A stretch of 64,000 nucleotides of DNA from the IMG/VR virus record IMGVR_UViG_3300044295_000323, positions 897 to 64,896 of that record; one strand, given 5' to 3'. The notes under the pieces are model-generated. The model had not been told where the DNA came from and searched no databases. It saw only the letters and a program-made list of their open reading frames with translations. This DNA is from a virus (lineage: Duplodnaviria > Caudoviricetes). Made by a program: the position numbers and the translations under genes. Shown piece by piece: positions 7,670-62,460 of this stretch; position 1 is the stretch's first letter; the number at the start of each line of letters is the position of its first letter.

Positions 7670-7968
7670 TCCTGGGTTCCTCGTTGTTGACGAAGCGCTT
7701 CTCGTTGATCACGACACTTCATCAGCTTCTTGTTCTTGTCTGCCAGCTCCCCCTTCAGCCGCTCGATCTCGGCTGAGAGGGTGGTGAGCTGGGCCAACAC
7801 GGCATCAATGGCCGCGACTTCCTCGCGCCATTCCTCTGCAAATATCTCGTCCCCAAGCGCCACCGGCTTAGCAAGATCGCGGGCCAAAACAAAGCGCCGA
7901 TCCTTCAGCACCTTGATGGCTGTTTCCGTCTGCTGGCCTGGCGTCTCCGGCTGCTTGATCTCGCTCAT
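7666..7968 (-). CDS. coiled-coil hypothetical protein
   Basis: SD AAGGAG; ATGA overlaps. Confidence 0.6.
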   Translation of the reverse strand: MSEIKQPETPGQQTETAIKVLKDRRFVLARDLAKPVALGDEIFAEEWREEVAAIDAVLAQLTTLSAEIERLKGELADKNKKLMKCRDQREALRQQRGTQE

Positions 7969-8234
7969 TTGGACTCCTTCGGCTCCGGTAATGGAAACAG
8001 AACGGGCTTTTGTGCTTCGCGCACGAATTGCCGGAATTGACCGACCGATACACACCACACCTGCCACTCGCTCCCGAAGTTGGCGTCTTGGAAACACAAC
8101 GGCCGCACGTCTGGAACTTCACGCCTGATAACAAGTTGATCAGTCTTATCGTTGGCTACATCTGTCTTTCCTGCGACAGCGTTATCACAGGCCGTAGCCA
8201 ATAGCGCCAACGCGACCATTACCAACATTCTCAT
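7965..8234 (-). CDS. putative lipoprotein
   Basis: MRMLVMVALALLATAC lipobox signal. Confidence 0.6.
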   Translation of the reverse strand: MRMLVMVALALLATACDNAVAGKTDVANDKTDQLVIRREVPDVRPLCFQDANFGSEWQVWCVSVGQFRQFVREAQKPVLFPLPEPKESK

Positions 8235-11071: not shown

Positions 11072-11503
11072 CTAGGCACCTCCTGTCAGTCGAGCGGCAG
11101 CAACGGCCGCCATAATGGACTTCTCACTCGTGAGCCACTTGGTTGCTTGCCACTCCCCTTGTTCGAGCCAGAGGACTTTGTAGCGATCCTTGGGCCCGTA
11201 GGCGTGGCCCATGAGCCAGATGCCGTTATTCCAGACGACAGTGTTTCTCTCCAGCCTTGTCCCGTGCTTCCAGAACCACGTCCCGTCGCCTCCTTCGGAC
11301 CACGCGTTGAATGTCTTCCGAAGACCTGGCGGGCGAGCCGGCTGACGTGACTTGATCACTGACGCGTCAGAATTCCATGGTGGTTTTGTCACAGCTTGCG
11401 CCACTATGCGTGACGTAATCTGCTGCTGGAGTTGCTTTACAGCAGCGAGCTTGCCAAGCACGATGGTCTTCACGTGCCGTGAGACGAAGGACTTGGTCGC
11501 CAT
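11072..11503 (-). CDS. Trp-rich early protein with C-terminal helix-RLTG motif
   Basis: ends SEKSIMAAVAAARLTGGA. Confidence 0.65.
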   Translation of the reverse strand: MATKSFVSRHVKTIVLGKLAAVKQLQQQITSRIVAQAVTKPPWNSDASVIKSRQPARPPGLRKTFNAWSEGGDGTWFWKHGTRLERNTVVWNNGIWLMGHAYGPKDRYKVLWLEQGEWQATKWLTSEKSIMAAVAAARLTGGA

Positions 11504-12234
11504 TAGCGCACCAGCTCCGTCTTGCCGTCGTGAACGAAGCCGCCCTTGACACCCTCGGCCATACGGGCATTAGAGCCCTTCCACCGCAAGCCCACCACCA
11601 CGCCCTCAGGATCGAGAAACCGCAAGTCGTCCTTGTCCCCGTCGACGACCCGGAGCCACTTGCCCTGGACCTTCAACTTGGCCGGCAGCTTCCCATCCCG
11701 CCGCACATTGAAGACGACAGCCATGTTGATGCCGAACTGCAAGCAGTGTGCCAGGTCAGCCTTGGTCGTCTTCTCGCTCACGCTGTAGGTCAGGTGGTAG
11801 TTGTCGAGCACCCGGCGCCGGGGCACGGGGAGCTTGGTGTAGTCATAGAACTGCACCGTGGGATTCAGGTTGGCCAAGCTATGGGCCAGACCGGGCCGAT
11901 CGGAGAGCAGGTTCGGCCGGACCGCCAGCTTCTTGTGCGTCTTGGCCAAGGCCTTGATCTCCTTGTCGACCTTCGCGACGAAGCCCTTGTAGTCAGTCAT
12001 GTACTCCTGGGTCCGACGCGCCCGTGCCTTGACGCTGGCAGGAAACACATTCATCCCCGTCTTAGCCAGACAGACGTCGGCACACGTGCCGGCCATGGCA
12101 CACATGGTCGGTAGTGTCTTGCCCAAGACGAGCCCCGCTTCCGTGGCCGGGCTCAGGTTCAGTCCCACGGTTTTCCAGCCCCGGGCCTTGGACTTGTCGA
12201 GCTTGTATTGTGAGGTTGTCAAGTAACTAGCCAT
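11503..12234 (-). CDS. GP88-like phage protein
   Basis: LSPA...C-x5-C-x3-CL, QFYDYTK, NYHLTYS, DGDKDDLRFLD, VVGLRWKG. Confidence 0.7.
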   Translation of the reverse strand: MASYLTTSQYKLDKSKARGWKTVGLNLSPATEAGLVLGKTLPTMCAMAGTCADVCLAKTGMNVFPASVKARARRTQEYMTDYKGFVAKVDKEIKALAKTHKKLAVRPNLLSDRPGLAHSLANLNPTVQFYDYTKLPVPRRRVLDNYHLTYSVSEKTTKADLAHCLQFGINMAVVFNVRRDGKLPAKLKVQGKWLRVVDGDKDDLRFLDPEGVVVGLRWKGSNARMAEGVKGGFVHDGKTELVR

Positions 12235-14961: not shown

Positions 14962-16257
14962 CTACTTCTCCTCGTGGATCGAGAAGGGGACGTGCTCGCC
15001 GTAGCCGGGCACGACCTGGGACGAGACGCACCACACCACGGGCACATCCACCGGACTGCTCGTGCTGAAGTCCGTGTAGCCATCCGTCAGGCAGACGATC
15101 ACCTCGACGTCTTGCAGCTTCTTCGCAATCCACCGGAAGCCCGCTTCCATATCGGTGCCACCGCCGGAGTAGAACTCCAGCTTCACCTCGTCGCCCTGCG
15201 CCGGCACGAACTCCAGGTGCTTCTGGACCTGGGTGTCCACATAGAGGACATGCACCTTGCTGGGGTTGCACTGCTCAATGATGCGTGCCATGTGGCCGGC
15301 GTAGTGCCGCAGTTCGATCTCGGAGATCGAGCCCGACACGTCGATCTGCAGGCAGATCTCGCCCATCATGGGCGTCTTGCCCACCCACGGCAGGTAGTGC
15401 TCGGTGTAGCGACGGTTGCGCTTGGCCCACGTGGACTCTGACCGGGCGAACGAGGTCATGTAGCGTTCGAGCTTCTCGTACCACGGCACCTTAGACTCGA
15501 TCAGTTCGGCCGCCCACTTGCCAATGGCACCGGGCAGCTTGCCCTGCATCTTGGCCGTCTGGGTGGCCTGCGCGATAGCGACCTTCATCTCGGCCTCCTG
15601 CTGCTTGGCCTGATCGGCCGTCATCGGGCCGCCCTTCTGCACCAGGTCACGGCCCACCCCGCCGATGGCCTGCCCGTGTCCGGGGCACTGGCAGGGTTGC
15701 CCACCCTTGCCGTGCTTGTGCTGCTTGGACTTCGACTTGCCCTGGCCCTGCTTGGACTGCTGTTGGCCCTGGCCCTGACCATCTTGCCCGCCATCGCCGT
15801 CCTGGCCTCCGCCCTGCTGCTGGTCGCCCACTTCGCCGCCGCACTGGGCGCACTTCACGGGCGGCAGTTCGTTGTAGATCTGGTCGGTCGTCTTGTCCTT
15901 GCTGCCCGGCATGTCGATGCCGCCCTCGATCATCTTGCCGATGCCGTCCTGCTTGAGCAAGTCGTTGATGAACGCATCGCCGGCGATGTTCCACTTCAGC
16001 TGGTGCCGATGGCCGAGACGTCCGGCGTGCTGGCACACCACGTGCATGACCTCATGGGCGAGGAGGAAGATCACTTCTTCCACGTCCATGTTCTCGATGA
16101 ACTTGGGGTTGTAGTAGATCTGTCCCCACTGATCGACGGCCGCCGTCGGGCACCACGGTTCGGTGACGGCGACGAGGGGACGTCTCAGCAAGATCGAGGC
16201 GAAGAACGGGTGCTGAAACACCATGTGCGCCTTAGCGCGTTCGAGAACTGTTGCCAT
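14962..16257 (-). CDS. metallopeptidase + VWA domain protein (DUF2201-like)
   Basis: HEVMH zincin motif, Gly/Gln linker, MIDAS DVSGS, GGGTD, LTDGY. Confidence 0.85.
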   Translation of the reverse strand: MATVLERAKAHMVFQHPFFASILLRRPLVAVTEPWCPTAAVDQWGQIYYNPKFIENMDVEEVIFLLAHEVMHVVCQHAGRLGHRHQLKWNIAGDAFINDLLKQDGIGKMIEGGIDMPGSKDKTTDQIYNELPPVKCAQCGGEVGDQQQGGGQDGDGGQDGQGQGQQQSKQGQGKSKSKQHKHGKGGQPCQCPGHGQAIGGVGRDLVQKGGPMTADQAKQQEAEMKVAIAQATQTAKMQGKLPGAIGKWAAELIESKVPWYEKLERYMTSFARSESTWAKRNRRYTEHYLPWVGKTPMMGEICLQIDVSGSISEIELRHYAGHMARIIEQCNPSKVHVLYVDTQVQKHLEFVPAQGDEVKLEFYSGGGTDMEAGFRWIAKKLQDVEVIVCLTDGYTDFSTSSPVDVPVVWCVSSQVVPGYGEHVPFSIHEEK

Positions 16258-16311
16258 TGGATTACGCTCCTTCCTGAACACTGACGTTGTTGTTATTCAC
16301 GTTTCCCACTG

Positions 16312-21795: not shown

Positions 21796-22080
21796 TTAGT
21801 ACTTGCTGTTGATTTGCGGGATGGCCGTGGTCATCTGGATGCGCAACTGGCCCACAGTCAAGTTGCACACCTGCGGAAACTCCGCGTTATCGAGCTCGAT
21901 GCAGATGACCGCGTCCGCCTTGACGGCGCGGTCGATGTTGATCTGCGCGGACGACGAGGGGCCAGGGGTGGTGTCGTCGTGGGCGTAGGGCCCGGGGTCC
22001 CGACGCCCATGAACGCCACTGTCACAGGCCGCCGTCACCGTGACGGCCATGACAATAGCAATAATCGACTTCGTGTGCAT
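21796..22080 (-). CDS. putative lipoprotein
   Basis: MHTKSIIAIVMAVTVTAAC lipobox; SD AGGAGG. Confidence 0.6.
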   Translation of the reverse strand: MHTKSIIAIVMAVTVTAACDSGVHGRRDPGPYAHDDTTPGPSSSAQINIDRAVKADAVICIELDNAEFPQVCNLTVGQLRIQMTTAIPQINSKY

Positions 22081-34460: not shown

Positions 34461-35051
34461 GTGAAGAAAACATCAAATCTTTCTCCAGATCAACTCATTG
34501 AGCTTCGGGCCAAGCGTGCAGCCTACATGCGTAGGTACAACGCAAGGCCCGAGGCCAAACTCCGAAATAAAGAACGCAATCTACGATACAAGTCACAAAG
34601 GCGGGAAAAGTTAGCAGCACAAGAAAGTGCCCGCTATTATGCGAACCACGAAAAGGCTCTAGAGTACAGACGCCAATATCGACATTCCCTAAGTCCAGAA
34701 GAAAAAGCCAGGCAACAACAGATCCGAAAAGAGTGGGCCCAGCAAAATCCTGATCGAGTCGCAGCGTCTTACCAACGACGTAAACACACCGATGCGTATC
34801 GGTATAAGGCCACAGAACAAAAGGGCAAACGTAAAGCTCGGGTTTCTGGAGCGCGTATCGAACGAATCAATTGGCGTCAGGTGTGGTCCACGTTTGACGG
34901 CACGTGCAATCTTTGTAAGAAAGAACTCCGCATCGGAGTTCACACCTACCACTTCGATCACATTGTAGCGTTGAGCCGAGGTGGCGCACACAGCACAGAC
35001 AATCTTCAGATCGTCCACGCAAAGTGCAACCTTTCCAAAAATCGCTACTAA
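34461..35051 (+). CDS. HNH homing endonuclease
   Basis: CNLC...FDHIVALSRGGAHSTDNLQIVHAKCN; AT-richer than flanks. Confidence 0.85.
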   Translation: MKKTSNLSPDQLIELRAKRAAYMRRYNARPEAKLRNKERNLRYKSQRREKLAAQESARYYANHEKALEYRRQYRHSLSPEEKARQQQIRKEWAQQNPDRVAASYQRRKHTDAYRYKATEQKGKRKARVSGARIERINWRQVWSTFDGTCNLCKKELRIGVHTYHFDHIVALSRGGAHSTDNLQIVHAKCNLSKNRY

Positions 35052-36504: not shown

Positions 36505-37191
36505 ATGAGGCAGCGTACATCGATCGGTATGACGATTCTGCTCTTGCTGGGTCTCTCCGTTTGGAGTGACGCGCAGAGCGTCGTCAGAAGTTCCATCACG
36601 AGTTTAACGGCCGGCGTCACGGGCACCTTGCCAGTGGCCAATGGCGGCACCAACAGTTCCACGGCCCTGTCTGGGTCGTCGATCGTCATTTCAAACGGCA
36701 CCGGAATCGTGCAGGGCTCAGCCGGTACCACGACGACGGTGCTCCATGGTAATGCGTCTGGGGCGCCAACCTACGGGGCGGTGACGCTCACGACGGACGT
36801 GACCGGCACGCTCCCAGTATCGAATGGCGGCACCGGTGTCACCTCCGCGTCTGCTCTTAGAAACTTGTCGACGGCGGTCTCCGCCCTGTCAGACGGTGCC
36901 ACGCCGGCACTCGATGCCTCGCTCGGGAACGTCTTCACGTTGTCGGCGGCCGGCAATCGAACGATCGCCGTTCCCACAAATCCCACGTCGGGGCAGAAGA
37001 TCATCATCCAGCATTATGCGAGTGGTGCGGATCGCACATTGTCGCTGAATACGGGCGCTGGTGGGTTTCGTTATGGCACTGACATTACGGGCCTTACTGC
37101 AACGACGTCTGGAAAGACGGACTACATCGGCGCCATTTATAACGCCACGGATTCCAAGTGGGACGTGGTGGCCTATGTGAAGGGGTACTAA
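36505..37191 (+). CDS. tail-fibre-like protein with N-terminal signal peptide
   Basis: two VTGTLPVxNGGT fibre repeats; C-terminal LDASLGNVFTL...GQKIII domain; MRQR-hydrophobic-SDA/Q leader. Confidence 0.65.
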   Translation: MRQRTSIGMTILLLLGLSVWSDAQSVVRSSITSLTAGVTGTLPVANGGTNSSTALSGSSIVISNGTGIVQGSAGTTTTVLHGNASGAPTYGAVTLTTDVTGTLPVSNGGTGVTSASALRNLSTAVSALSDGATPALDASLGNVFTLSAAGNRTIAVPTNPTSGQKIIIQHYASGADRTLSLNTGAGGFRYGTDITGLTATTSGKTDYIGAIYNATDSKWDVVAYVKGY

Positions 37192-38078
37192 TGCGTCGCC
37201 TAGTGGCCATTTCGCTCATCTTCCTCCTGACCATCTTCACGGCGCCGATGCAGGCGGCGCTGACGGTGGACGTGCTCTTGGTTGCCGGAGGCGGTGGTGG
37301 GGGTAAGGGCAACGCCGGTGTCGGGGGTGGCGGCGGGGGTGCTGGCGGCGTCAAGGAAACCAGCGGTGTTTCTGTGTCACCAGGCGCGTACAGCGTCGTG
37401 GTGGGCATGGGTGGTGCTGGATCAAGCACGAATAATGTGGTCGGATCAAGCGGCACAGATTCAACGTTCACGGGTGCAACCACAGCTGTCGGCGGGGGTG
37501 GTGGGTGGACGTACGATCAGGGCGGCGGCACCACGAGCGGCAACGGGGGATCCAGTGGTGGTGCAGCGTGGTGGGGCGCGCCAGGAACGGCAACGGCTGG
37601 CCAAGGTAATCAGGGTGGCACGTCGGTTTTTGGGGACAATGGCGGTGCGGGTGGTGGCGGTGCCAGTGCCACAGGCGGCGCCGCAGGCAGTACAGGCGGT
37701 GCCGGTGGCGCCGGCGTGTCAAGCAGCTATAGTGGCTCGGCCACGACGTACGGTGGTGGCGGAGGCGGTGGTGGCTCGACGGGTGGCGCAGGTGGCAGTG
37801 GTGGTGGTGGAGCCGGGGCTACAGGTGCCGTCGCCGGTACCGATGGGACGGCAAACCGTGGTGGCGGGGGCGGTGGTGGGTATTCGACAAGTAATGGTGG
37901 CGCGGGTGGCTCTGGTATCGCGATTATCCGGTATCTGACCGGCACGTTGACGGCTACTGGCGGCACCATTACGACCTCTGGCGGCTACACAATCCATACG
38001 TTCACCTCAAGTGGCACATTTACGGTGACAAATAGTGCGAAACATCGCATGTTCCTTCTTTTCCCAGGGGACGAGTAA
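37191..38078 (+). CDS. glycine-rich tail/receptor-binding-type protein with signal peptide
   Basis: LLVAGGGGGG...GGAGGSGIAIIRY...YTIHTFTSSGTFTV; leader MRRLVAISLIFLLTIFTAPMQA. Confidence 0.7.
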   Translation: MRRLVAISLIFLLTIFTAPMQAALTVDVLLVAGGGGGGKGNAGVGGGGGGAGGVKETSGVSVSPGAYSVVVGMGGAGSSTNNVVGSSGTDSTFTGATTAVGGGGGWTYDQGGGTTSGNGGSSGGAAWWGAPGTATAGQGNQGGTSVFGDNGGAGGGGASATGGAAGSTGGAGGAGVSSSYSGSATTYGGGGGGGGSTGGAGGSGGGGAGATGAVAGTDGTANRGGGGGGGYSTSNGGAGGSGIAIIRYLTGTLTATGGTITTSGGYTIHTFTSSGTFTVTNSAKHRMFLLFPGDE

Positions 38079-38390
38079 ATGAAGTGGATGGTCGCCGTTC
38101 TCTTGAGTAGTTGCCTTGTAGCGCCGGCATTCGCTCAAGAGCCCCTGACGCCGATTGAAAAAGAGCAGCTCGCAAGGGCTGCTCTTTTAGCTCAAGTCGA
38201 CACCTTGACGCAGGAGTTGGCCAAATGGCGGCGTGAAGCCGCCGATTTGGCCATTCGCGTCAGCCAGCTGGAAGTCGTCCTGCAACAGAAACTGAATGCC
38301 CAGTATTGGGCCGAGTTGAAAGCGTCCATCGAGGCCAATCACCCAGGGCAGACCCTGAACGAGAAGGGTCAATTGGAGACAAAGAAATAA
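38079..38390 (+). CDS. coiled-coil protein with signal peptide (fibre chaperone-like position)
   Basis: MKWMVAVLLSSCLVAPAFA/Q then heptads. Confidence 0.6.
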   Translation: MKWMVAVLLSSCLVAPAFAQEPLTPIEKEQLARAALLAQVDTLTQELAKWRREAADLAIRVSQLEVVLQQKLNAQYWAELKASIEANHPGQTLNEKGQLETKK

Positions 38391-39328
38391 TGCGTACCTT
38401 CAAAGATCTCCAAGACGTGGTGCTCGATTGGATGGCCGACTCGGATAACACCGGGCTCTTGCGAACCCTGGTGTCAGACGCCATCAATCGCGCCCACCAG
38501 AATCTGCTCAATGACGATCGGTACGATTTCATGCTGTGGCCGCGTACCGAAACCATCAGCGTGGTCGCCAACACGAAAGCGTACGCGCTGCATCCCCGGT
38601 TTGGCCACCCGTTGTTTTTCTACAATCCCACGACAGATGAGTACTTGGAAGAGGTGGCCCCGAAGGGCCTCCTGGAATCTGGTGAAGACTGGCAGGACGG
38701 CCAGGTTAGTGAGCCTGAACGGTTTATGCTTACTGGCCTGCAGAAGCTCCTCACTCAGCCCACAGCTGCTGGTGTCGTTACTGTTACTACTACGGGCGGA
38801 ACTGAGTCTTCTGCAAATTCTGTCGTTGTTACGGGAACCTACAATGGCGCAGTGGTTAGTGAGACGCTATCGTCAGGTTCAAGCTGGTCCACCCTTACCG
38901 GCACTCAGTCGTTTGATGTCATAGAAGACATCACCAAGGTTGGTGCGACATGGACTCGCACCATCACCGCGACCTGTAACGCCCAGACAATCTTGACACT
39001 AGGCGCCTCTGACTATGGGGCTCAGTACCGGGTGTTTGAGCTCCTGAGTAGCCCTACGCAGAGCGCCACCGTCCAATACCGCTTCTACAAGCAGCCGCGT
39101 CAGCTCGTGCGTGATAACGACATTCCCGACCTGCCCATGGGCTTCGACGACATCTTAGTCTATGGGGCGCTCATTGCTATGCATGGCTACACACGAGCCA
39201 CCGATGCCGAGATGACATGGTGGGCGAAGCAGCAGAAGACGCTGATTGACACCATGCAGGAAACTTACCGCTCGACACGTTCCATGGGCGGCCGACCGAC
39301 GTTTGTTCGCTACATCCCCAGGGTCTAA
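38390..39328 (+). CDS. head-tail adaptor / tail tubular A-like protein
   Basis: MRTFKDLQDVV...AINRAHQ, DIPDLPMGFDDILVYGAL; precedes the gp10-like gene. Confidence 0.65.
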   Translation: MRTFKDLQDVVLDWMADSDNTGLLRTLVSDAINRAHQNLLNDDRYDFMLWPRTETISVVANTKAYALHPRFGHPLFFYNPTTDEYLEEVAPKGLLESGEDWQDGQVSEPERFMLTGLQKLLTQPTAAGVVTVTTTGGTESSANSVVVTGTYNGAVVSETLSSGSSWSTLTGTQSFDVIEDITKVGATWTRTITATCNAQTILTLGASDYGAQYRVFELLSSPTQSATVQYRFYKQPRQLVRDNDIPDLPMGFDDILVYGALIAMHGYTRATDAEMTWWAKQQKTLIDTMQETYRSTRSMGGRPTFVRYIPRV

Positions 39329-41514
39329 TGGCTGATCTCTACCAGGAAATCACCGAATTCAGCGGCGGCGTGCAGTCGTCGGCAGCGGCAGATCGTATCC
39401 CGTTGAACGCCACCCCGTTGGCGATCAATACCGCGTTTCGGAATATTGGCTCGAAACAAGCCAATCTTGGGACGCGGCCAGGTCTCGTGACGATCAACTC
39501 GACCGCGATTGCTGGCAGTCCGGCCATTCAGTTTCAGCGACTCTACGCCTATGATGCGGGGAGCTCGTTCTATAACTATTTGGCCCTAGTAACGAACACG
39601 GGCCGTCTCTACTTTAAAGACACGTCTGACACACTGACGTCTGAGCTCACACCGCCGGCCGATTTCCGTGGCACCGCGAGCCATCTCTTTGCCACAGGCG
39701 ACAGCCTGATCGACGGCACCGTGATGAACAACCGACTATTCTTAGTGGATCAGAATAGCGAACTGCGCAGTCTGTTGAACCAGACCTATAAGCCGTGGGG
39801 CTTGAGCCCCTTGGCGACGTGGACCGCAGCTGGCGCTGCCTCGGGCATCAACGCGATGCCCAACGAGACCTACGACGTCTCGATCACGACGTATGATTCA
39901 GCGACGGGTGCTGAGTCGGCCATCGCCACCTACACGTCTGTCGCGATCGGCGGCGCGAATCGCCGTCTCAAGATCGACATCACGCCCACGAGCACAGAGT
40001 CCGCCACCTACTCCCACTGGCGCGTCTACGTTCGGCGCCAGACGACCCAGGCGGATCTCTACAAAGTCTCGAATCTCTACAACGCGGCCGGCACCCTGAC
40101 GATTACGGACAGCAACATCCCGATCGCCACCACCACCATCTATGCGGACTTGAGCTCGGCGCAGATCGCCGCCCTGACGACCGTGGCGCCCAGTGCGGCT
40201 CAGTATGGGCTGCCGCCGACGGACATCCGCTACGTCTGCACCTATGGACGTCGTCTCATTTGTGCGTCGGACCGGAACGTCTACTGGTCGCTGATCGACA
40301 AACCGGATTCGTTCCCGACGACGGCCTTCGAGCCCATTGAAACGGGCGAAGGTGATCGCATTACGGGCGTCTATCCGTTTAGCTCCGAACTGTGCGTCGT
40401 CACCACGACGACCTCAACCTGGGGCATCTTTGGATCCGATCCAGAGACGTGGGTCATTCGCCCTATTGACCATAGCGTGGGAAGTGTTTCTCATCTGTCG
40501 ATCACAGAGTATGACGGCAAGCTCGCCTGGTGGTCGTCCGAACGTGGTCCGGTCTTCTTTGACGGCGAAAAGCTGAGCTTCCAGGCACTTGACGATCTGG
40601 GTGTCCAGGCCGTCGTAGGCGACATTGAACCGTCGTCGATGAGCAAGATCTACGGTGGCTATGACCCGCAGGGACAGCGCATCCTGTGGTCGGTGGCGCC
40701 CGTGGGCACGCTGACGCGTCTGACGCGACTGATCCCCTACAACACCAGGATCCAGCGGTTTGAAGCCTCCTATTGGAATCCTATGGATGTCTCCTCGATG
40801 TCGATGGGCTATCTGGCCGATGGCACCCAGCGGCTCTTTGTGGGCGGCTTTGGCGGTCAGTTGTTCTACTTCGACAAAGACACGATGAACGATGGTGTTG
40901 TGAGCGGCACGTCTACGCAGACGTTTACGCCAAGCACGTCTACGATCACCACGATCGACGGGACGGGGTTTGACACCACGGGCGCCGGTCTGGCCGAGCG
41001 CTACGTCGTGGTGTGCGATAGCGACAACCGCCCGATGGGCAAGTCGCGCATTAGCTCGAACACGTCAACGGTGCTAACGCTGGCGAACGGTATCAGCGGC
41101 CTCACGGCTGGGCGCTCCCATACGGCCTATATTGGGGGCCCCGACATGCGGCTCTATACCAAGTGGCTCGATCTGGAGCAGACGTTCAATCGCAAGCGCT
41201 TTGACCGCCTCTACTTGCAGGCGCAGAGTAGCGGCGACGTCAGCGCGGCCTATGTCGCGACTCAGGTCGACTTCATTAACGAAACACTGGCACCGCAGAA
41301 TCCGTTCCAAGTCTCGGGGGCGTCCTGGGATTCGGCTGTCTGGGACACCTCTCAGTGGGCCGGCGTGGGTCAGCTCAAGAAACGCATATTTATTGGTCGT
41401 ACCGGCCAGTCCTTGCGTGTGTCCATGTTTCACTTCAAGCCCGATGTGGACTTGACAGTGCATACGATCGGTGTGTTAGCGAGACAGCAGTCGGAGCGAT
41501 ACTACGGTGACTAA
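39328..41514 (+). CDS. tail tubular B / P22 gp10-like stabilization protein
   Basis: EFSGG...LGTRPG N-terminus, VYWSLIDKPDSF, GDRITG, WDSAVWDTSQW; beta-propeller-like. Confidence 0.7.
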   Translation: MADLYQEITEFSGGVQSSAAADRIPLNATPLAINTAFRNIGSKQANLGTRPGLVTINSTAIAGSPAIQFQRLYAYDAGSSFYNYLALVTNTGRLYFKDTSDTLTSELTPPADFRGTASHLFATGDSLIDGTVMNNRLFLVDQNSELRSLLNQTYKPWGLSPLATWTAAGAASGINAMPNETYDVSITTYDSATGAESAIATYTSVAIGGANRRLKIDITPTSTESATYSHWRVYVRRQTTQADLYKVSNLYNAAGTLTITDSNIPIATTTIYADLSSAQIAALTTVAPSAAQYGLPPTDIRYVCTYGRRLICASDRNVYWSLIDKPDSFPTTAFEPIETGEGDRITGVYPFSSELCVVTTTTSTWGIFGSDPETWVIRPIDHSVGSVSHLSITEYDGKLAWWSSERGPVFFDGEKLSFQALDDLGVQAVVGDIEPSSMSKIYGGYDPQGQRILWSVAPVGTLTRLTRLIPYNTRIQRFEASYWNPMDVSSMSMGYLADGTQRLFVGGFGGQLFYFDKDTMNDGVVSGTSTQTFTPSTSTITTIDGTGFDTTGAGLAERYVVVCDSDNRPMGKSRISSNTSTVLTLANGISGLTAGRSHTAYIGGPDMRLYTKWLDLEQTFNRKRFDRLYLQAQSSGDVSAAYVATQVDFINETLAPQNPFQVSGASWDSAVWDTSQWAGVGQLKKRIFIGRTGQSLRVSMFHFKPDVDLTVHTIGVLARQQSERYYGD

Positions 41515-41818
41515 TGAAGACCGGGTCTATTTTGACCGCCAAATCCCCTCGACCCAGTACGAGTATGTAGACGCCTATTTTCCGGCCGCTGATACCGATA
41601 TCAAGATCCCATTGAGTCGCCTTCGCCTCGATAATCCTGAGGAAATTCGATGGCTTGACATTTCTCCAGGAACGGTGTATAGTGGTGGTGTAGACACTGT
41701 GGCCCACGTCTACAGATCTTCTGGCCCTTCCCGGGGCGCCTTCACTAGTAGCGCCATTGTCCTGCGATCCACGGTAGCCGGTTACCGGACCAGGCTTCTC
41801 CTCTTCGTTGAACGATAA
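41507..41818 (+). CDS. hypothetical tail protein
   Basis: overlapping junctions within the tail module. Confidence 0.55.
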   Translation: MTNEDRVYFDRQIPSTQYEYVDAYFPAADTDIKIPLSRLRLDNPEEIRWLDISPGTVYSGGVDTVAHVYRSSGPSRGAFTSSAIVLRSTVAGYRTRLLLFVER

Positions 41819-42564
41819 TGAAAAAGCTACTCTTTCTTCTGACTCTGCTGGCGCCCGTTCCTGTGTGGGCCCAGATCTCCATCCCCAATACGTTCAATCC
41901 TGGTGACACGATCTATTCGAGCCAGGTCAATGCCAATTTTACGGCGCTCGGTTCCGATAGTTTGAATCGGACGGGTGGGACCATTACTGGCAACATTACA
42001 GTTTCTAACGGCATCACGATCGATGGTATCGATCTGAGTGCCTATTTGGACCAGAGCGTCAAAGTGGCGGCGACACCGACGTTCGCGGGCCTGACGATCA
42101 GCGGCACGGGTGCCTCGAGTCTGGACATCGGCGGCGGTCTGAATGCCGGCACGGGCAACGTCGCCATCATCAGCGCGACGGGCAAGATTCCCGCGTATTC
42201 GTCCACATATTTCACGTCGACGAAGCTGACGAACTACTCTGAGACCAAGGCGGCCCCGTCGATTTCCTCGAATACGCTGACGCTGGATCTGTCGACCGCC
42301 TCTCACTTTGTTGTCGCGTTGAACGCCAATATTACGACGCTGACGATCTCCAATGCCCCAACGTCAGGTGACGCTGGATCGTTTGTCCTAGTCTTTACGG
42401 CTGATGGATCGGCCCGCACTGTGACGTGGCCGGCGAGTGTGAAGTGGCCGGCAGGCGTGGCCCCGACGCTCACTTCTACGAACAACAAGAAAGACTTCTT
42501 CACCTTTGTCACCTATGACGCCGGGACCACGTGGTACGGCTTTGTGGGTGGGCAGAACTTCTAA
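41818..42564 (+). CDS. tail-fibre-like protein with signal peptide
   Basis: MKKLLFLLTLLAPVPVWA/Q; NTFNPGDTIYSSQVNANF anchor-type motif; C-terminal domain paralogous to 36505..37191. Confidence 0.7.
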   Translation: MKKLLFLLTLLAPVPVWAQISIPNTFNPGDTIYSSQVNANFTALGSDSLNRTGGTITGNITVSNGITIDGIDLSAYLDQSVKVAATPTFAGLTISGTGASSLDIGGGLNAGTGNVAIISATGKIPAYSSTYFTSTKLTNYSETKAAPSISSNTLTLDLSTASHFVVALNANITTLTISNAPTSGDAGSFVLVFTADGSARTVTWPASVKWPAGVAPTLTSTNNKKDFFTFVTYDAGTTWYGFVGGQNF

Positions 42565-43532
42565 TGCAGACAGTATTAGCCTTGACGCTGAGCGCCGCTC
42601 TTGTCTGGGCGCCCATTGATCAACTCACCAAGCTGCTCCTGGCGCAGACGTCATTCACGATGGTTTATACCGGGACGGCGTCTGGATCCTGGACGCCCAC
42701 CACTGGTGCCACGTTAGATTTTGGCCCTGGTACCTACTCCATCACGGTGTCAAAGGCGGCCACCCTGACGTTCGACGCGGTCGCCGCAGGTGGTGGGGGT
42801 GGTGGCACGAACACCACGGGCGCTACACCCGGCGCGGGTGGAGGCGGTGGCGGGGCCATTAGTCGTGGCAACAGCATCGCCATGGCCCCGGGCAACACCT
42901 ATACGCTCATTGTGGGCGCCGCTGGCTATGGTGGCGGTGCAGGAGTCGCAGGCGGTGCCGGTGGCGACACGAGTTTCGTAAATGCTACCTCTGTGACTAC
43001 GTATGTGTATGTCGGTGGTGGTAGTGCTGGTCAGGGCGCAGACGCCTCGGGTCTGACAACGCCAGGTGGTGCGGGTGGCACTGTGAGCGTGGGATCTGGT
43101 GGTGTCGCTGGCGGCGCAGGTGGTAACGGCAACCCGGCCGGCGGTTCTGATATGTACGGCGCCCAGAATGCCAACGGTACGGGCGGTGGTGGTGCCGGTG
43201 GTCCAGTTTCGACGAGCACCACACCAGGCCAGGCGGGCTACGGTGGTGCCTCTCCAGCAGCTGGTACGTCTGGTACGGGCGGTGCGGGTGGCTACAGCGG
43301 CGACACCATCAGCATTGCCGCCACAGCCGGTACATCAAGTAGTGGCGCAGGTGGTGGTGTTGAAGTCGCGGCGGGCGGCATTAACGGCGGTGGTGGTGGT
43401 GGTGGCGGCGGTGGTGCCTCGATCGCTGGTGGATACTACGGTGGCGGGGGCGGTGGAGCAGGTGGTTCAGGCGGCGGTGGTTCAGCCTCAGGTGGTGCCG
43501 GCGCAAACGGCCGAGCCCGATTTACGAAATAA
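42564..43532 (+). CDS. glycine-rich tail protein with signal-like leader
   Basis: MQTVLALTLSAALVWA; AVAAGGGGGG...YTLIVGAAGYGG paralogous to 37191..38078. Confidence 0.65.
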   Translation: MQTVLALTLSAALVWAPIDQLTKLLLAQTSFTMVYTGTASGSWTPTTGATLDFGPGTYSITVSKAATLTFDAVAAGGGGGGTNTTGATPGAGGGGGGAISRGNSIAMAPGNTYTLIVGAAGYGGGAGVAGGAGGDTSFVNATSVTTYVYVGGGSAGQGADASGLTTPGGAGGTVSVGSGGVAGGAGGNGNPAGGSDMYGAQNANGTGGGGAGGPVSTSTTPGQAGYGGASPAAGTSGTGGAGGYSGDTISIAATAGTSSSGAGGGVEVAAGGINGGGGGGGGGGASIAGGYYGGGGGGAGGSGGGGSASGGAGANGRARFTK

Positions 43533-43543
43533 TAGGAGCAGAC

Positions 43544-43942
43544 ATGACGCAGTTTCAGGACGTAATTAATGAAGCCGTGAAGGCGATTGTTGTGACTTCC
43601 ATTGGCGCGATCGCCCCCCTGGTGGTGGCCATTGTCGTCAAGATCTTCCAGAAGTTCCACATTGAACTGAGCGAGGTGCAGGAAGTGAAGATCCGTGGCG
43701 CCGTGCAGAACATCTTGCTGGAAGTGGAAGAGTGGGCCTCGCATCGTCTGAAGGCGAACTTCGAAGTCACTTCGGGCCAGAAGTTGGAACGGGCGGTGGA
43801 AGCCATCGTGACCAAGTTCCCAGGCATTGACGACGAGGAAGCGACCAAGCTGGTGCGCGAAGAGCTGCCCAAAATTGGCCTCGGAGCCGTCAGTTTTTTA
43901 GCCGAGGCGGCCAAGGCCGCGACCCAGAACCCGAGCAAGTAA
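43544..43942 (+). CDS. putative holin (LL-H-like)
   Basis: N-terminal TM, then AVQ..VEE...GQKLERAV pattern; near endolysin. Confidence 0.6.
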   Translation: MTQFQDVINEAVKAIVVTSIGAIAPLVVAIVVKIFQKFHIELSEVQEVKIRGAVQNILLEVEEWASHRLKANFEVTSGQKLERAVEAIVTKFPGIDDEEATKLVREELPKIGLGAVSFLAEAAKAATQNPSK

Positions 43943-44172
43943 TGCCGGAGCCCAAGCCTCCCGTCAGTATCCAGGCCGATGAGCAGCTGAAGAAACTGCT
44001 CGCCGACCTTCCGTCCACCGGGCGCGGGATCGTCACAGCCACCGTTACGAACGACGGGGCTCAGATCGATTTCGCGACCAAGATCAACTCGCACTTTACG
44101 TCGTCGGCCTATTGGCAGAAGCCCCGTACGGGGGCTGCTACATGGGGCGCCAGAGCAACCGTGCAATGGTAG
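43942..44172 (+). CDS. hypothetical protein
   Basis: TAATG overlap; within the lysis cluster. Confidence 0.55.
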   Translation: MPEPKPPVSIQADEQLKKLLADLPSTGRGIVTATVTNDGAQIDFATKINSHFTSSAYWQKPRTGAATWGARATVQW

Positions 44173-44179
44173 TCGAATC

Positions 44180-44425
44180 ATGCCCAGTAGCCCCGTCACC
44201 CGTGAAGAGCTCATTGCTCACCTAGATCCGATCAAGAGCGACGTCCAGGAAATCGTGACGTTGTTGAGGGAACAAAACTCTGCCATATCGGACACCAAGA
44301 CCGAAGTGGCGGTCTTAAAAGATCGTCAGCCCACACGCCAGGCCATGGCGTGGGGCGCCGGTGCGGGTTCGTTCGTGGCCGCCCTCGGCATGCTCTTGGA
44401 CTATCTGCGATTCCACTCCAAATAA
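44180..44425 (+). CDS. coiled-coil + C-terminal TM protein (lysis-associated)
   Basis: heptads, EVAVLK, C-terminal hydrophobic helix. Confidence 0.55.
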   Translation: MPSSPVTREELIAHLDPIKSDVQEIVTLLREQNSAISDTKTEVAVLKDRQPTRQAMAWGAGAGSFVAALGMLLDYLRFHSK

Positions 44426-44868
44426 TGACGCCCTTTCAACTCGCCCAGCGGTACGTTGGTATTCATGAGCTCATTAAGGGTGATCATCCCCTGATCCAGT
44501 GGTGGTTGTCCCTGTGTGGCTTTCCCATGAACGTCACCGATGAAGTGGCGTGGTGTAGCGCCTTCGTTAATGGGATGTGCTGGGAACTGAGACTCCCCCG
44601 GTCGAAGTCAGCAGCGGCCCGCAGTTGGCTCCAAGTGGGAACGCCCATTAGCATTAGCCAGGCCATGCCGGGCTTTGACGTTGTCGTCTTAAAGCGCGGT
44701 CAGGGTCAACAGCCTGGGCCCGATGTGATCAATGCTCCGGGTCACGTAGGCTTCTTCGCCGGCATGGAAAACGGCAAGGTGCTCGTCCTGGCCGGGAATC
44801 AAGGGAACGCTGTGAGCGTCCTCGCATTTCCCCTCGGGGACGTCCTGGGCATTCGGCGGGTGAGCTAA
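44425..44868 (+). CDS. NlpC/P60-CHAP endolysin (TIGR02594-like)
   Basis: DEVAWCSAFVN, AARSW, GHVGFF, LAGNQ. Confidence 0.85.
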   Translation: MTPFQLAQRYVGIHELIKGDHPLIQWWLSLCGFPMNVTDEVAWCSAFVNGMCWELRLPRSKSAAARSWLQVGTPISISQAMPGFDVVVLKRGQGQQPGPDVINAPGHVGFFAGMENGKVLVLAGNQGNAVSVLAFPLGDVLGIRRVS

Positions 44869-52215: not shown

Positions 52216-52271
52216 GGGTGTGTAGCATCTTACTTAATGTGGGTAGATCTTTACCCATTTTGGGAGACGGG

Positions 52272-52706
52272 ATGCCTCAGACACACGAAGAGCGGCTCAC
52301 ATATCAACGACGGAAGCGTCGGGAAGTGGGCGACCGATACACGAAGAAGTACGAAAAGACCCCTAAAGGCTTCGTCATGCGCGCCTACAGAAACATGCAA
52401 TCGCGTGTCACTGGGGTGCAGACCAAGAAAGCTCATCTGTATAAAGGTCTTACTCTCCTTGATCGCCAGGAGTTTTATAGCTGGGCTTTGGATGACTCAG
52501 AATTTCGTCGGCTCTACAAACGGTGGGTTGAGACAGGCTATGAGCATCGTCTGACCCCCTCGATCAATCGGATCGATTCCAACAAAGGTTACACGCTTGA
52601 CAACTTAGAGTGGGTTACGCACTCCGTCAATTCGTCACTGGGGGGTGCGAGCAGTAAGCGCCGCCACGTTCGTTCACTTCTTGAGGTCTATGAACATGTC
52701 GGCTAA
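52272..52706 (+). CDS. His-Me finger / HNH-like endonuclease
   Basis: PSINRIDSNKGYTLDNLEWVTHSVNS. Confidence 0.7.
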   Translation: MPQTHEERLTYQRRKRREVGDRYTKKYEKTPKGFVMRAYRNMQSRVTGVQTKKAHLYKGLTLLDRQEFYSWALDDSEFRRLYKRWVETGYEHRLTPSINRIDSNKGYTLDNLEWVTHSVNSSLGGASSKRRHVRSLLEVYEHVG

Positions 52707-60079: not shown

Positions 60080-61975
60080 TTAGATCTCGCAGAGTCCCCC
60101 GACGCAGGCGAACTCCGAATTAACGGTCGTAATGTCTTGCGTCTCCTGAATGAGATGCAAGTCCAGGGCCGTTGGTAACAGCGCCAGCCGGCGCTCATAT
60201 TCGTCCTTGGTAATCTCTTCGTAGGGCGCCAAGGGATAGATATTGGTATCCTTCGGCAGGAAGCTCAGACCACCAATGGCGTCCCATGACATCCGCAGGA
60301 AGGACGTCACCCCCACCCATTCATCTGGATGGACGTAGATGGTGCAGGAGGGGTTGTGTTCTGTCCAGCATTTCTTCCACATCAGCCAATAGGAGAGCTG
60401 GTCCAGGGCCGACAGTTGATCCCGCACGATGGCTCCATCGGGACTCTTCACCGGGAGCTCCACCACCCACTGTTGGGCCTCCTCTAGTGTGCCTTGGGCG
60501 GTCTCGGGAAATACCGGCAACCCACGGTCTCGAAGATGCAGGCCAATAGGGGAGCGTGCAGCAACACGCAATCGGCGAACGTAATACGGAGCGTACCGAG
60601 CGTGAATACCTGAGCTAGTATCCAGGAATTGAGCACTGTTGCCACTAGGCTTATTGCAAGTAACGGCCGCGCTTGCCGCCACGCCAAGCAAAGCTGCCCA
60701 GCCCTTATTGACTTCGACGGCCACGTCTTTGAGGTGCCCCAAAAGACGAGGTGTAGTATGCGGGTCGCACAAGAGGGGACAATCGCAAGCCCCAGTAATA
60801 TCAACACCGAGCAAGCGTTCCTCGTCACAGTTGGCCTTCCACTCAGGGCTCAAATAGCTGAAGTTAGTCAACGTACTTTGGATCGTCCCCAGAATCGCAG
60901 CCAGGTTGACCTTGTGTTCGAGCGTCTGGGTCGTGTCATCAGGGCGCGCCACTGCGATCGATAGGTTGCAGAACTGACGCGGGCGCAGGATGATCTCCCC
61001 ACAGGGGTTAGTGCCAAAGTCGTCCCGCACGGCCCGTCGTTGAGGGACGGCGCCGTCACGCCGAAACACACCGGGCTCTCCCGTGCCGTTGCCGGCCAGT
61101 TGGGCCATCCACGAAAGGAGATCGCTGTCCTTGACGGGGCCCGTGGCGACCATGCTGTTGTTGGCCATGGCCAGCTCTGGCATCACTTCCCAGAATTTGC
61201 CGTTCTTGGCCGACAGCATCTCCTGATCGTCGGCGTCAAACAGGGCTATTTCGGCCGCTCGTCGTACGCCCCCAACCTGGACAATAGACCCACACATTGT
61301 CGCCAGTCGATGGACGTCAAGCGGGCGCAACGCTTGACCCCGTCGAGCCCGGATGATATCCCAACTTTTATCAAGAAGATCACGGAGGGGCTTAGGCCCT
61401 GAAGCTCGACCACCCTTGGTGTGGAGCCATTCTCCCTCAGGGCGAATCTGCGAATAGTCGTACTGCCGCTTGACCCCATCAAGCGCATCTACGAGCCGCT
61501 GCTTAAACGCGTCAGCCCACCCTTCTGTCGAATCATCAATGACATAGATGTCGTCCGTATGGGAGTCAGTGTCCTTTACTTTGGGCCACTTCTGGATGTG
61601 GACCTTCTCAACCGAGTACCCCACACCAGTGCCTTGCATGAGGATGTACAGCAACTCCGCAAGGTCGCGGGGAGCTTCGAGTACGGTATACGCGCAGTTG
61701 TACGCCCCAACGTTACAGCGGTCGAGCGAAGGGCCCGCCATTTGGACAATCCGCATCGACGGCAATACGTCCCGACGAAGAATCGCATCGTGAAGGTTGG
61801 ACCAGACTTGGCCTGGAATTTTCTTGGCGCCGGGCGCTTTTTGGAGCCACTGAGTGACGCGGGACGTGACTTCGGCCCACGTTTCACGCCGGCTCTTTTC
61901 CGGGATCCACCGCGCATACTTGTCATAAAGGGTTAGCTCCGTAATGAACTCTGCACCTTTGCAATCTCGCTTCAC
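60080..61975 (-). CDS. nrdJ: class II (adenosylcobalamin) ribonucleotide reductase
   Basis: LPSMR, YNCAY, GTGVG, VRRAAEI, GTNPCGEI, KPSGN, C-terminal CVGGLCEI; no beta subunit gene seen. Confidence 0.9.
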   Translation of the reverse strand: MKRDCKGAEFITELTLYDKYARWIPEKSRRETWAEVTSRVTQWLQKAPGAKKIPGQVWSNLHDAILRRDVLPSMRIVQMAGPSLDRCNVGAYNCAYTVLEAPRDLAELLYILMQGTGVGYSVEKVHIQKWPKVKDTDSHTDDIYVIDDSTEGWADAFKQRLVDALDGVKRQYDYSQIRPEGEWLHTKGGRASGPKPLRDLLDKSWDIIRARRGQALRPLDVHRLATMCGSIVQVGGVRRAAEIALFDADDQEMLSAKNGKFWEVMPELAMANNSMVATGPVKDSDLLSWMAQLAGNGTGEPGVFRRDGAVPQRRAVRDDFGTNPCGEIILRPRQFCNLSIAVARPDDTTQTLEHKVNLAAILGTIQSTLTNFSYLSPEWKANCDEERLLGVDITGACDCPLLCDPHTTPRLLGHLKDVAVEVNKGWAALLGVAASAAVTCNKPSGNSAQFLDTSSGIHARYAPYYVRRLRVAARSPIGLHLRDRGLPVFPETAQGTLEEAQQWVVELPVKSPDGAIVRDQLSALDQLSYWLMWKKCWTEHNPSCTIYVHPDEWVGVTSFLRMSWDAIGGLSFLPKDTNIYPLAPYEEITKDEYERRLALLPTALDLHLIQETQDITTVNSEFACVGGLCEI

Positions 61976-62406
61976 TGTCGCACCTTCCCATATCGTCCAC
62001 GGCCCCGACGTTCTCTGTCATCTGCGTTATCGGCGGGGGTTCCTAGTCGCAGATGCGCTGGATTCACACAGCTTGGGTTATCACATGAATGCAAGACATG
62101 CCATTCATTCGGCTCTTGCACGAACAACGTATAAGACACTCTATGCGCTGTTAGACACTGACCTTGAAAAGAAAAATACCCGTACCCTGCCGGATGTTTA
62201 GACGCGTTCCAATTCCAACACATCGAGGTCTTATCAACTTTCTTCAAGAACCGAACGCGTACTTTTTCGAGTGCTTCCGCTGTGTATGGTTTCGCATTCG
62301 CCTTTTGAAAGCGCCGTGTCCACTTCTTGCGATGTGTTCTAACTTTGTCTGGATTCGCCTTGCGCCAACGAGCCGTTCTAGCCCGAGCTGCTTCCTCACG
62401 AGTCAT
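61972..62406 (-). CDS. HNH homing endonuclease
   Basis: CWNW...GYG...AHRVSY...HSCDNPSCVNPAHLRLGT..DN. Confidence 0.85.
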   Translation of the reverse strand: MTREEAARARTARWRKANPDKVRTHRKKWTRRFQKANAKPYTAEALEKVRVRFLKKVDKTSMCWNWNASKHPAGYGYFSFQGQCLTAHRVSYTLFVQEPNEWHVLHSCDNPSCVNPAHLRLGTPADNADDRERRGRGRYGKVRQ

Positions 62407-62419
62407 GCCTATATGATGC

Positions 62420-62460
62420 AAAAGAAGAGGACCAGGTTACGGCGAAGTAACCTGGTCCTC
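62420..62460 (-). terminator. intrinsic terminator
   Basis: 14-bp stem GAGGACCAGGTTAC/GTAACCTGGTCCTC then TTCTTTT. Confidence 0.8.

Follow-up and report, generated by a model that had tools for sequence, protein, structure and literature searches.

Five genes in the tail module of an uncultivated podophage encode proteins that begin with predicted signal peptides (leaders) of the general secretory (Sec) type. The best explanation of our results is that these genes make up the module for receptor-binding fibres in a podophage that looks virulent and SU10-like, and that this module has been put under Sec export. The stretch of DNA analysed (hereafter the window; 64,000 nucleotides (nt)) corresponds to bases 897-64896 of the 64,896-base virus record IMGVR_UViG_3300044295_000323, which has direct terminal repeats and is rated complete. 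The phage has a complete 64.9-kb podophage genome, with a capsid protein and an adaptor of the SU10 type. The five genes were named SP1 to SP5 according to their position (Table 1). SP4 is an ortholog of the ordinary cytoplasmic fibre of sister phages, SP2 and SP5 are of the Gly-rich partner type, SP1 is a second fibre-like protein, and SP3 is a coiled-coil accessory protein.

Table 1 Features of the fibre module and its surroundings (window positions; a slash marks the predicted cleavage site; aa, amino acids)
Feature	Position	Strand	Remarks
SP1, 228-aa fibre-like protein	36505..37191	+	23-aa leader (36505-36573), ending ..VWSDA/QS
SP2, 295-aa stand-alone Gly_rich_2 protein	37191..38078	+	22-aa leader (37191-37256), RR n-region, 15-residue core, ending ..PMQA/AL
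SP3, 103-aa coiled-coil protein, predicted to be exported	38079..38390	+	19-aa leader (38079-38135), ending ..APAFA/QE
Head-to-tail adaptor, SU10 adaptor family	38390..39328	+	Without leader; PF24175, E-value 2.5e-16, 61.1 bits (cut-off 27)
Nozzle-position tail protein, 728 aa	39328..41514	+	Without leader; named only from its place after the adaptor
Small tail-module protein, 103 aa, conserved	41507..41818	+	Without leader; always between the nozzle-position and fibre genes
Sigma-70-like promoter motif	41655..41683	+	TTGACA, 17 nt, TATAGT; 11/12 positions; inside the 103-aa gene
SP4, 248-aa predicted main tail fibre	41818..42564	+	18-aa leader (41818-41871), ending ..VWA/QISIPNTF
SP5, 322-aa Gly-rich fibre partner	42564..43532	+	16-aa hydrophobic N-extension (42564-42611); weakest leader
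Putative lysis region	43544..44868	+	Two small membrane-helix proteins (43544-43942, 44180-44425), a 76-aa open reading frame, a TIGR02594-family lysin (44425-44868)
Structural gene block	~26.4-54.3 kb	rightward	Portal, scaffold, and major capsid protein first

The initial annotation had described these five open reading frames (ORFs) and their N-termini, and both were confirmed by translation of the ORFs together with a codon view. Each start lies at or close to the end of the upstream neighbour: SP2, SP4, and SP5 overlap the preceding stop codon as TAATG, SP3 directly abuts the upstream gene, and SP1 begins 4 nt after it. We scored the 29 genes of the structural module with a leader rule of our own, which looks for basic residues in the n-region, for a hydrophobic core (8-16 residues, uncharged), and for small residues in positions -1 and -3. 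SP1, SP3, and SP4 were flagged with a basic n-region (two Arg residues, K, and KK, respectively). SP2, with its RR, was left unflagged for the sole reason that its residue at -3 is Met. SP5 (M-Q-T) only reached the threshold, with a score of 3.33 against 4.04 for SP1, because it has no basic residue and carries a Pro at +1. The capsid, portal, adaptor, nozzle-position, and internal proteins were not flagged, in agreement with the earlier statement that such genes have no leaders. As a background, 74 tail-fibre loci from unrelated phages were scored in the same way; of their 704 unique ORFs, 21 (3.0%) were flagged, with a maximum of one per locus. Signal peptidase I is known to require small neutral residues at -1 and -3 and to be blocked by Pro at +1; the -3/-1/+1 residues of SP1 (S-D-A/Q), SP3 (A-F-A/Q), and SP4 (V-W-A/Q) fit this rule. 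The hydrophobic cores of all five leaders span ~10-15 residues, which is below the length of a membrane helix. On these rules and comparisons, the proposal that all five proteins carry cleavable Sec leaders is supported for SP1, SP3, and SP4, whose predicted leaders are canonical; it needs qualification for SP2 and is doubtful for SP5.

The relatives of this phage strongly support the view that the fibre-module proteins have real export signals, as the leader is kept in its properties and in the register of its junction, and its presence co-varies between fibre and partner genes. The conservation check suggested in the initial annotation was carried out on the best 120 of 930 SP4 homologs, 68 of which possess the N-terminal fibre domain. 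Sixty-six of these carry a leader, one (P0067) is leaderless and starts at the mature end, and one is truncated. The 66 leaders have a median length of 21 aa and a median best 8-residue Kyte-Doolittle mean of 3.16, and the n-region has a net positive charge in 65 of them. Ala is found at -1 in 61/66, Ala or Val at -3 in 56/66, and Gln at +1 in 63/66. In 62/66, the net charge over the first 20 residues of the mature part is zero or below. In pairwise comparisons, identity averages 25% over the leader and 52-53% over the two mature domains; in that alignment, Ala at -1 and Gln at +1 are present in 61/63 and 63/63 sequences, respectively. This pattern, with conserved properties and a variable sequence, is what a functional signal peptide would show. 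Among 45 unique ORFs with the N-domain from a metagenome scan, 41 have a leader, 3 have none, and 1 is cut.

Two other export routes were considered and rejected. Signals for twin-arginine translocation (Tat) combine a long n-region with an S/T-R-R-x-F-L-K-like motif and a core of weak hydrophobicity. Here, a Tat-like motif ([ST]RRx[FLIV][LIV]) occurs in 1/66 leaders and RR in 6/66, the cores are strongly hydrophobic, and SP2 has the RR but also a very hydrophobic 15-residue core. The leaders are not of the lipoprotein (signal peptidase II) type either, as the residue at +1 of SP1-SP4 is Gln or Ala and not Cys. Judged from these sequence properties, the leaders are very probably genuine Sec/signal-peptidase-I signals.

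The mature end of SP4 corresponds to the start of leaderless fibres in sister phages. Using the nozzle-position protein as a marker of the phage clade, we found homologs in eight viral loci (L001-L008; 45-49% identity) and in others, and the gene order of the window from capsid to fibre is common to these eight. In 7/8 of them (all but L003, which was not read on its own), the gene that follows the 103-aa gene starts with M-A-[IL]-[ST]-[IV]-P, which aligns to residue 20 of SP4, and the same leaderless syntenic fibre start is seen in L012/L013, L102, and L104/L105. These fibres (L001-L008, L012/L013, L102) occupy the same position after the nozzle-position and 103-aa genes and share the N-domain signature [IL]-[ST]-[IV]-P-x-[ST]-F with SP4; they start at the mature end (Met-Ala...), whereas the window fibre and 66/68 of its close homologs add a Sec-type leader of 18-42 aa. 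Processing at A/Q would therefore give the same mature N-terminus, and Met removal in the leaderless fibres and cleavage in SP4 would leave the two N-ends in the same register. The junction A-x-A/Q-I-[ST]-[IV]-P thus provides a precise and testable prediction of the mature N-terminus. The fibre gene is translationally coupled to the preceding tail gene in the same way in leader-bearing and leaderless phages.

The leader state is shared between the fibre and its Gly-rich partner, whose gene follows the fibre gene in several sister phages, as in the window. Both have leaders in the window (although the one of SP5 is weak), in L009, and in L100/L101, and both lack them in L013/L105 and L102. Compared with two leaderless orthologs (L013 and L102; 36-38% identity), the excess of SP5 consists of exactly its first 18 residues. 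Extra leader-bearing genes are also found just before the adaptor gene in the window (SP1-SP3), in L089/L113/L115/L124, in L009, in L106, and in L173, while they are absent from L143 and from every leaderless locus. The pre-adaptor gene of L089/L113/L115/L124 encodes a 120-aa protein, predicted to be secreted, in which a paralogue of the fibre tip domain from the same phage stands alone. As a separate observation, this 120-aa gene is interrupted by an in-frame stop in L120 (1758-2492) and is intact in the near-identical L124.

In a 25-row tree of the nozzle-position protein, the leader-bearing state is present on every deep branch, and the leaderless phages form one nested clade plus L005. The minimum number of leader-state changes is 2 (1 possible), and 0/500 shuffles gave as few. 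The tree was rooted only at its midpoint and its sampling is uneven; given this root, the tree suggests that the leader-bearing state is old and was lost once or twice. L013 (9267-13281; the same contig as L105) combines a leaderless fibre with three consecutive leader-bearing proteins of 307, 252, and 776 aa after the lysis genes, the last of which has immunoglobulin-like domains. In a second family of fibre N-termini found among the SP1 homologs, a 23-aa Sec-like leader of P0336 ends where leaderless members such as P0296 start (M-A-A-S-Y-P...), and the addition of leaders to fibres may thus recur outside this clade.

SP4 looks like a genuine virion fibre. It consists of a conserved N-terminal domain (residues 19-80), which is found in no other protein of the window, and a C-terminal beta-sandwich tip (residues 141-248). 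The C-terminal half matches eleven PHROGs, most of which are named tail fibre (best match phrog_9017, 1.5e-26). With tblastn, the tip was found in 489 cultured-phage records, mostly under tail-fibre annotations among the hits listed, and no match covers 80% of the protein. The AlphaFold2 (AF2) model of SP4 has a predicted local distance difference test score (pLDDT) of 81.8, with the tip modelled confidently. The best structural neighbours of the tip are phage spike or tailspike domains, 9ny6_C (Z 7.2, root-mean-square deviation 2.8 over 92 residues), 24qj_A (Z 7.1), 6o38_A (Z 6.9), and 7rej_A (Z 6.3), all with Z scores below the noise bar of the tool (~8); a Foldseek search with SP4 gave no match at E <= 0.001. 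We infer that the N-domain of SP4 docks on the tail.

The other binding-type proteins of the module are of a different kind. SP1 contains repeats of the motif G-T-L-P-V-x-N-G-G-T, and its C-terminal domain is of a kind common among phage fibres; its only PHROG match is phrog_3030, of unknown function (E-value 9.8e-6), and the homologs of its C-domain are mostly leaderless and fibre-like, with 4 of the 120 listed being signal-peptide-like. SP2 matches Gly_rich_2 from residue 21 (PF21722, E-value 9.8e-24, 85 bits, gathering cut-off 24.3) and phrog_2295 (6.6e-42). In most of the 120 listed SP2 homologs, the Gly_rich_2 domain lies behind an ordinary leaderless fibre N-terminus, and 3/120 are signal-peptide-like. 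The SP2 equivalents of L009 (7532-8431) and L100/L101 have canonical leaders, and the L009 partner scores 45.4 bits with Gly_rich_2. Two other Gly_rich_2 proteins among the SP2 homologs, P0162 and P0213, have type IV pilin-like N-termini, one of them with PF07963, and neither a fibre N-domain nor a Sec leader. SP5 scores 11.7 bits (E-value 0.26) with Gly_rich_2, below the cut-off of 24.3. The proposal that the module contains two paralogous pairs could be kept only in terms of architecture (a fibre-like protein followed by a Gly-rich one), since BLASTP gives no significant SP1-SP4 or SP2-SP5 alignment. No attachment N-domain was detected in SP1, SP2, or SP5. Together with the 120-aa secreted tip-domain protein of the relatives, these proteins, which have no recognisable attachment domain, fit the earlier idea of secreted decoys at least as well.

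SP3 appears to belong to a family of small exported proteins. Its AF2 model (pLDDT 88.7) shows a helix spanning residues 25-86 followed by a short beta-hairpin. In a library of 1.84 billion proteins, 9/9 small SP3 homologs have a Sec-type leader; 8 pass the rule, and P0372 has a shorter N-terminus that ends in ..PTFA/QT. No SP3 relatives were found in viral contigs, and a protein atlas gave no score of at least 0.9. A hidden Markov model (HMM) of the SP3 family matches only L100/L101, L106, and L173, where each matching gene has a leader of its own and lies directly downstream of a leader-bearing fibre or Gly-rich gene; the HMM has no match in any leaderless locus. We rejected a lipoprotein assignment, as the Cys of the L-S-S-C motif is absent from 9/9 aligned homologs and cleavage there would leave an 11-residue leader. 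Spanins are typically encoded in the lysis cassette and combine a periplasmic coiled coil with either an uncleaved N-terminal membrane anchor or a lipobox. SP3 was not retained as one, as it has a conserved A-x-A/Q site and no conserved Cys, lies 5 kb from the lysin gene, and follows fibre genes in relatives. Some small fibre-assembly chaperones are encoded beside fibre genes, such as the coiled-coil gp57A of T4 and the Tfa proteins of lambda and Mu. SP3 resembles these in being small, mostly a single helix of the coiled-coil type, and encoded directly after fibre or partner genes; it differs from them in that there is no sequence or family match and that SP3 and its homologs are themselves predicted to be exported. 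A chaperone role for SP3 is a guess.

We propose the following scenario, which extends the suggestion of the initial annotation that the fibres may be exported and attached in the periplasm or at lysis. Late in infection, expression of the tail operon would yield the module proteins, which would pass through SecYEG in an unfolded state. Cleavage by signal peptidase I at A-x-A/Q would then follow, clearly in SP1, SP3, and SP4, less so in SP2, and doubtfully in SP5, and the products would fold and oligomerise in the periplasm, possibly with the help of SP3. Heads with adaptor and nozzle would assemble in the cytoplasm without fibres. Holin and lysin would merge the two compartments, and the processed fibre would dock by its N-terminal domain, with its mature N-end in register with the Met-trimmed N-end of the leaderless orthologs. 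Such late docking is plausible, given that T4 particles without fibres combine spontaneously with free fibres in vitro. Export followed by docking at lysis seems the most economical scheme because there is no candidate virion fibre other than SP4, whose processed form would be equivalent to the leaderless fibres. For the whole chain, from export and processing to the joining of fibreless particles at lysis, we see slightly less than an even chance. More tentatively, this large, as yet uncultivated podophage clade could build its virions in two compartments, with fibres, partners, and a coiled-coil helper exported by Sec and particles becoming infectious only on lysis. If true, the payoff could be that fibres are kept away from cytoplasmic receptor precursors or from cytoplasmic defences that target fibres; a bacterial system for conjugating the central tail fibre of a phage with a ubiquitin-like protein is reported in the preprint 10.1101/2023.09.04.556158.

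Several points weigh against this scenario. The leaderless sister lineages indicate that export is dispensable for this type of fibre. The closest relative, L143, has a leader-bearing fibre and no exported cassette before the adaptor. SP1, SP2, SP5, and the L089-type 120-aa protein have no attachment domain and may never reach the virion. Within the module, SP5 combines a Pro at +1 with the lack of a basic n-region, and SP2 has its Met at -3. The leader-bearing counts (66/68 homologs and 41/45 metagenome ORFs) are biased upward by sampling, because the search started from a leader-bearing query and one of the patterns used on the metagenomes extended across the A-Q junction, and the order of events read from the tree depends on its weak root. 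Finally, we know of no tailed phage that attaches exported fibres, and a search of full-text literature (subscription journals and supplements were outside this search) returned no report of Sec leaders on tailed-phage fibres.

Alternatively, the proteins could be exported non-structural receptor-binding factors, made late, that mask or modify the receptor and of which the virion uses little or none. They could, for example, bind a glycan receptor at the periplasmic face during its synthesis or coat envelope debris, so that progeny are protected from dead-end adsorption or competitors excluded. Exported phage receptor blockers are established (Llp of T5, Cor of phi80), and SP1, SP2, SP5, and the 120-aa protein of L089/L113/L115/L124 are bare binding-type domains behind a leader, the last being a stand-alone paralogue of its own phage's fibre tip; the phage also has two early ORFs with lipoprotein-like N-termini. 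SP4, however, keeps the full N-domain of the leaderless syntenic fibres, and without it the particle would have no candidate fibre. An export signal is also needless for anything released at lysis, and the genes are translationally coupled within the tail operon, as structural genes are. Exclusion of the lysogen type is unlikely because no integrase was found among the 50 ORFs scanned and the phage looks virulent. As the sole function of the proteins, masking seems rather unlikely. A combination of the two roles would reconcile the needs of the virion with export: one pool of each protein would be exported as a blocker or accessory, and another would stay in the cytoplasm and be built into virions, through inefficient targeting, late saturation of Sec, or internal starts. 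The weak leader of SP5 would indeed export poorly, and start codons lie within two leaders, a GTG at codon 16 of SP4 (3 codons before the cleavage site) and an ATG at codon 20 of SP2 (2 codons before). Internal initiation is not conserved, however, as the fibre genes of L089 and L009, as well as SP1 and SP3, have no start codon near the junction, and we rejected dual translation starts as a conserved device. An uncleaved hydrophobic leader on a cytoplasmic trimer would be prone to aggregation, and the near-invariant Ala at -1 and Gln at +1 argue that the processed form is selected. Two pools therefore appear improbable.

The leaders could also be unused for export, either as retained hydrophobic helices that serve inner-membrane parking or oligomerisation, or because Sec is shut down at that time. 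This would agree with the cytoplasmic assembly of tailed phages in all studied cases and with the imperfect cleavage sites of SP5 and SP2. It has little chance of being correct in view of the conservation of the n-h-c architecture and of the -3/-1/+1 residues while the sequence varies, which is the signature of a signal peptidase substrate and not of a structural helix. Moreover, a membrane-spanning helix would need more than the 10-15 residues of these cores, the leaderless orthologs indicate that docking does not depend on such a helix, and the SP3 family looks like typical small secreted proteins, given that all nine homologs have a Sec-type leader. The last explanation, that the leaders are artefacts of wrong start codons or chance hydrophobic N-termini, is almost certainly wrong. 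The public gene call for SP1 (P0241, 220 aa) does use the second ATG (36529 instead of 36505), which keeps the hydrophobic core and loses the basic N-end, so that automatic signal-peptide calls become less likely, and SP5 has an alternative in-frame GTG upstream (42531). Yet the later ATGs of SP1 (Met9) and SP3 (Met4) retain the core, and these two genes have no start codon near the cleavage site. The ATG of SP2 (Met20) and the GTG of SP4 (Val16) close to the junction have no counterpart in the L089 and L009 fibre genes, and the genes abut or overlap their neighbours. The leaders also recur in 66/68 homologs, in ~41/45 metagenome ORFs, and in partner genes, against a background of 3.0%.

According to textbooks, the morphogenesis of tailed phages takes place entirely in the cytoplasm. 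This view is challenged by the main tail fibre of this clade, whose conserved, clade-wide Sec leader points either to extracytoplasmic final assembly or to secreted receptor-binding copies; two-compartment assembly, if true, would be a new morphogenetic route for tailed phages. The pIII and pVIII proteins of the filamentous phage M13 are virion proteins made with Sec signal peptides. As in the scenario proposed here, a virion protein that binds the receptor is made with a signal peptide that is cleaved off, and it is added to the particle outside the cytoplasm. Filamentous phages are, however, extruded through the envelope without lysis, whereas the window encodes a lysin, its capsid, portal, adaptor, and nozzle-position proteins are leaderless, and only the fibre module would be extracytoplasmic. 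Tailed-phage proteins known to be sent out through the host Sec system include signal-peptide and signal-arrest-release (SAR) endolysins and the lipoproteins Llp of T5 and Cor of phi80. The T4 antiholin RI is also reported to use Sec and to act in the periplasm (PMC8385771). None of these proteins is a virion fibre, and Llp and Cor are lipoproteins, whereas the window leaders have Gln or Ala at +1 and not Cys. A cellular parallel is WceF of Pantoea stewartii, a trimer with a tailspike fold and a cleavable N-terminal export signal that is thought to act on exopolysaccharide in or beyond the periplasm (PMC7949094). WceF is a cellular enzyme exported folded by Tat, in contrast to the phage tail-operon genes studied here, with their Sec-like leaders (1/66 Tat-like). 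Sec-exported fibres would also affect the recognition of fibre genes in metagenomes, as a signal peptide is usually taken to mean 'not structural', and would bear on host-range prediction, on the avoidance of dead-end adsorption or intracellular defences, and on the engineering of fibres that fold in the periplasm.

The structural block of the window has the gene order of a podophage of this clade. The portal is phrog_156, a scaffold gene lies in the same block, and the major capsid protein matches SU10_MCP with 25.9 bits (cut-off 24.1) and phrog_14242 at 1.4e-61. The capsid gene is followed by a gene for an HNH endonuclease, by three for small conserved proteins, and by the adaptor gene of the SU10 type. 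Neither Pfam nor PHROG nor PDB sequences gave a match for the nozzle-position protein, and kinship with SU10 is supported for two proteins only, the capsid protein (SU10_MCP) and the adaptor (SU10_adaptor). A search of the sequences of solved structures returned no match for the SP4 family and nothing meaningful for the adaptor. The relatives of the small 103-aa protein between the nozzle-position and fibre genes align with 43-57% identity to the window protein. The sigma-70-like motif within its gene lies ~135 nt upstream of SP4 and may be a dedicated promoter of the fibre gene; it hints at a host with a standard sigma-70 consensus. Its hexamers are kept at synonymous codon positions in L089, L113, L120/L124, and L143, and they also occur in the leaderless L004 (TATAAT) and L005 and not in L001/L002 or L012. 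The presence in L004 and L005 led us to reject this promoter as a feature specific to leader-bearing phages. The putative label of lysis cassette for the region downstream of SP5 is based on position and on the lysin match, and large Pro/Gln-rich proteins are encoded beyond it.

Genes for a DNA polymerase A and a ribonucleotide reductase lie in the leftward blocks, as do those for an AAA_25 ATPase and a DUF2201 protein. The early genes with family matches include 14962-16281 (-), 11503-12234 (-), and 4731-5705 (-), which encode a DUF2201 metallopeptidase/VWA-like, a GP88-family, and an AAA_25 ATPase protein, respectively; most other early ORFs have no family. No integrase was found among the 50 ORFs scanned (47 from the early region) and no tRNA genes were found in the window. 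The phage looks virulent, and a prophage or lysogenic-conversion reading was rejected given the lack of an integrase in these 50 ORFs, the DNA polymerase A and ribonucleotide reductase genes, and the terminal repeats. No cultured relative was found: the capsid protein matches only actinobacterial phages, with at most 29% identity, and a search of 50,697 phage records gave nothing for the nozzle-position protein. Host labels are weak: one homolog lies on a 2.3-kb contig of a Vicinamibacterales metagenome-assembled genome (MAG), and one all-phage 19-kb contig is binned in a 'Proteobacteria' MAG; neither label is reliable. The early ORFs 21796-22080 (-) and 7965-8234 (-) start like lipoproteins, with A-A-C or T-A-C after a hydrophobic core, and are candidates for exclusion proteins located in the envelope; they also hint at a diderm host. 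HNH-type endonucleases are encoded by three genes, at 34461-35051 (+), 52218-52706 (+), and 61972-62421 (-), one of which is wedged between the capsid and tail genes. Most structural genes in the region 27787-54341 (+) have no recognisable Shine-Dalgarno sequence, and stop/start overlaps or very short gaps join them to one another.

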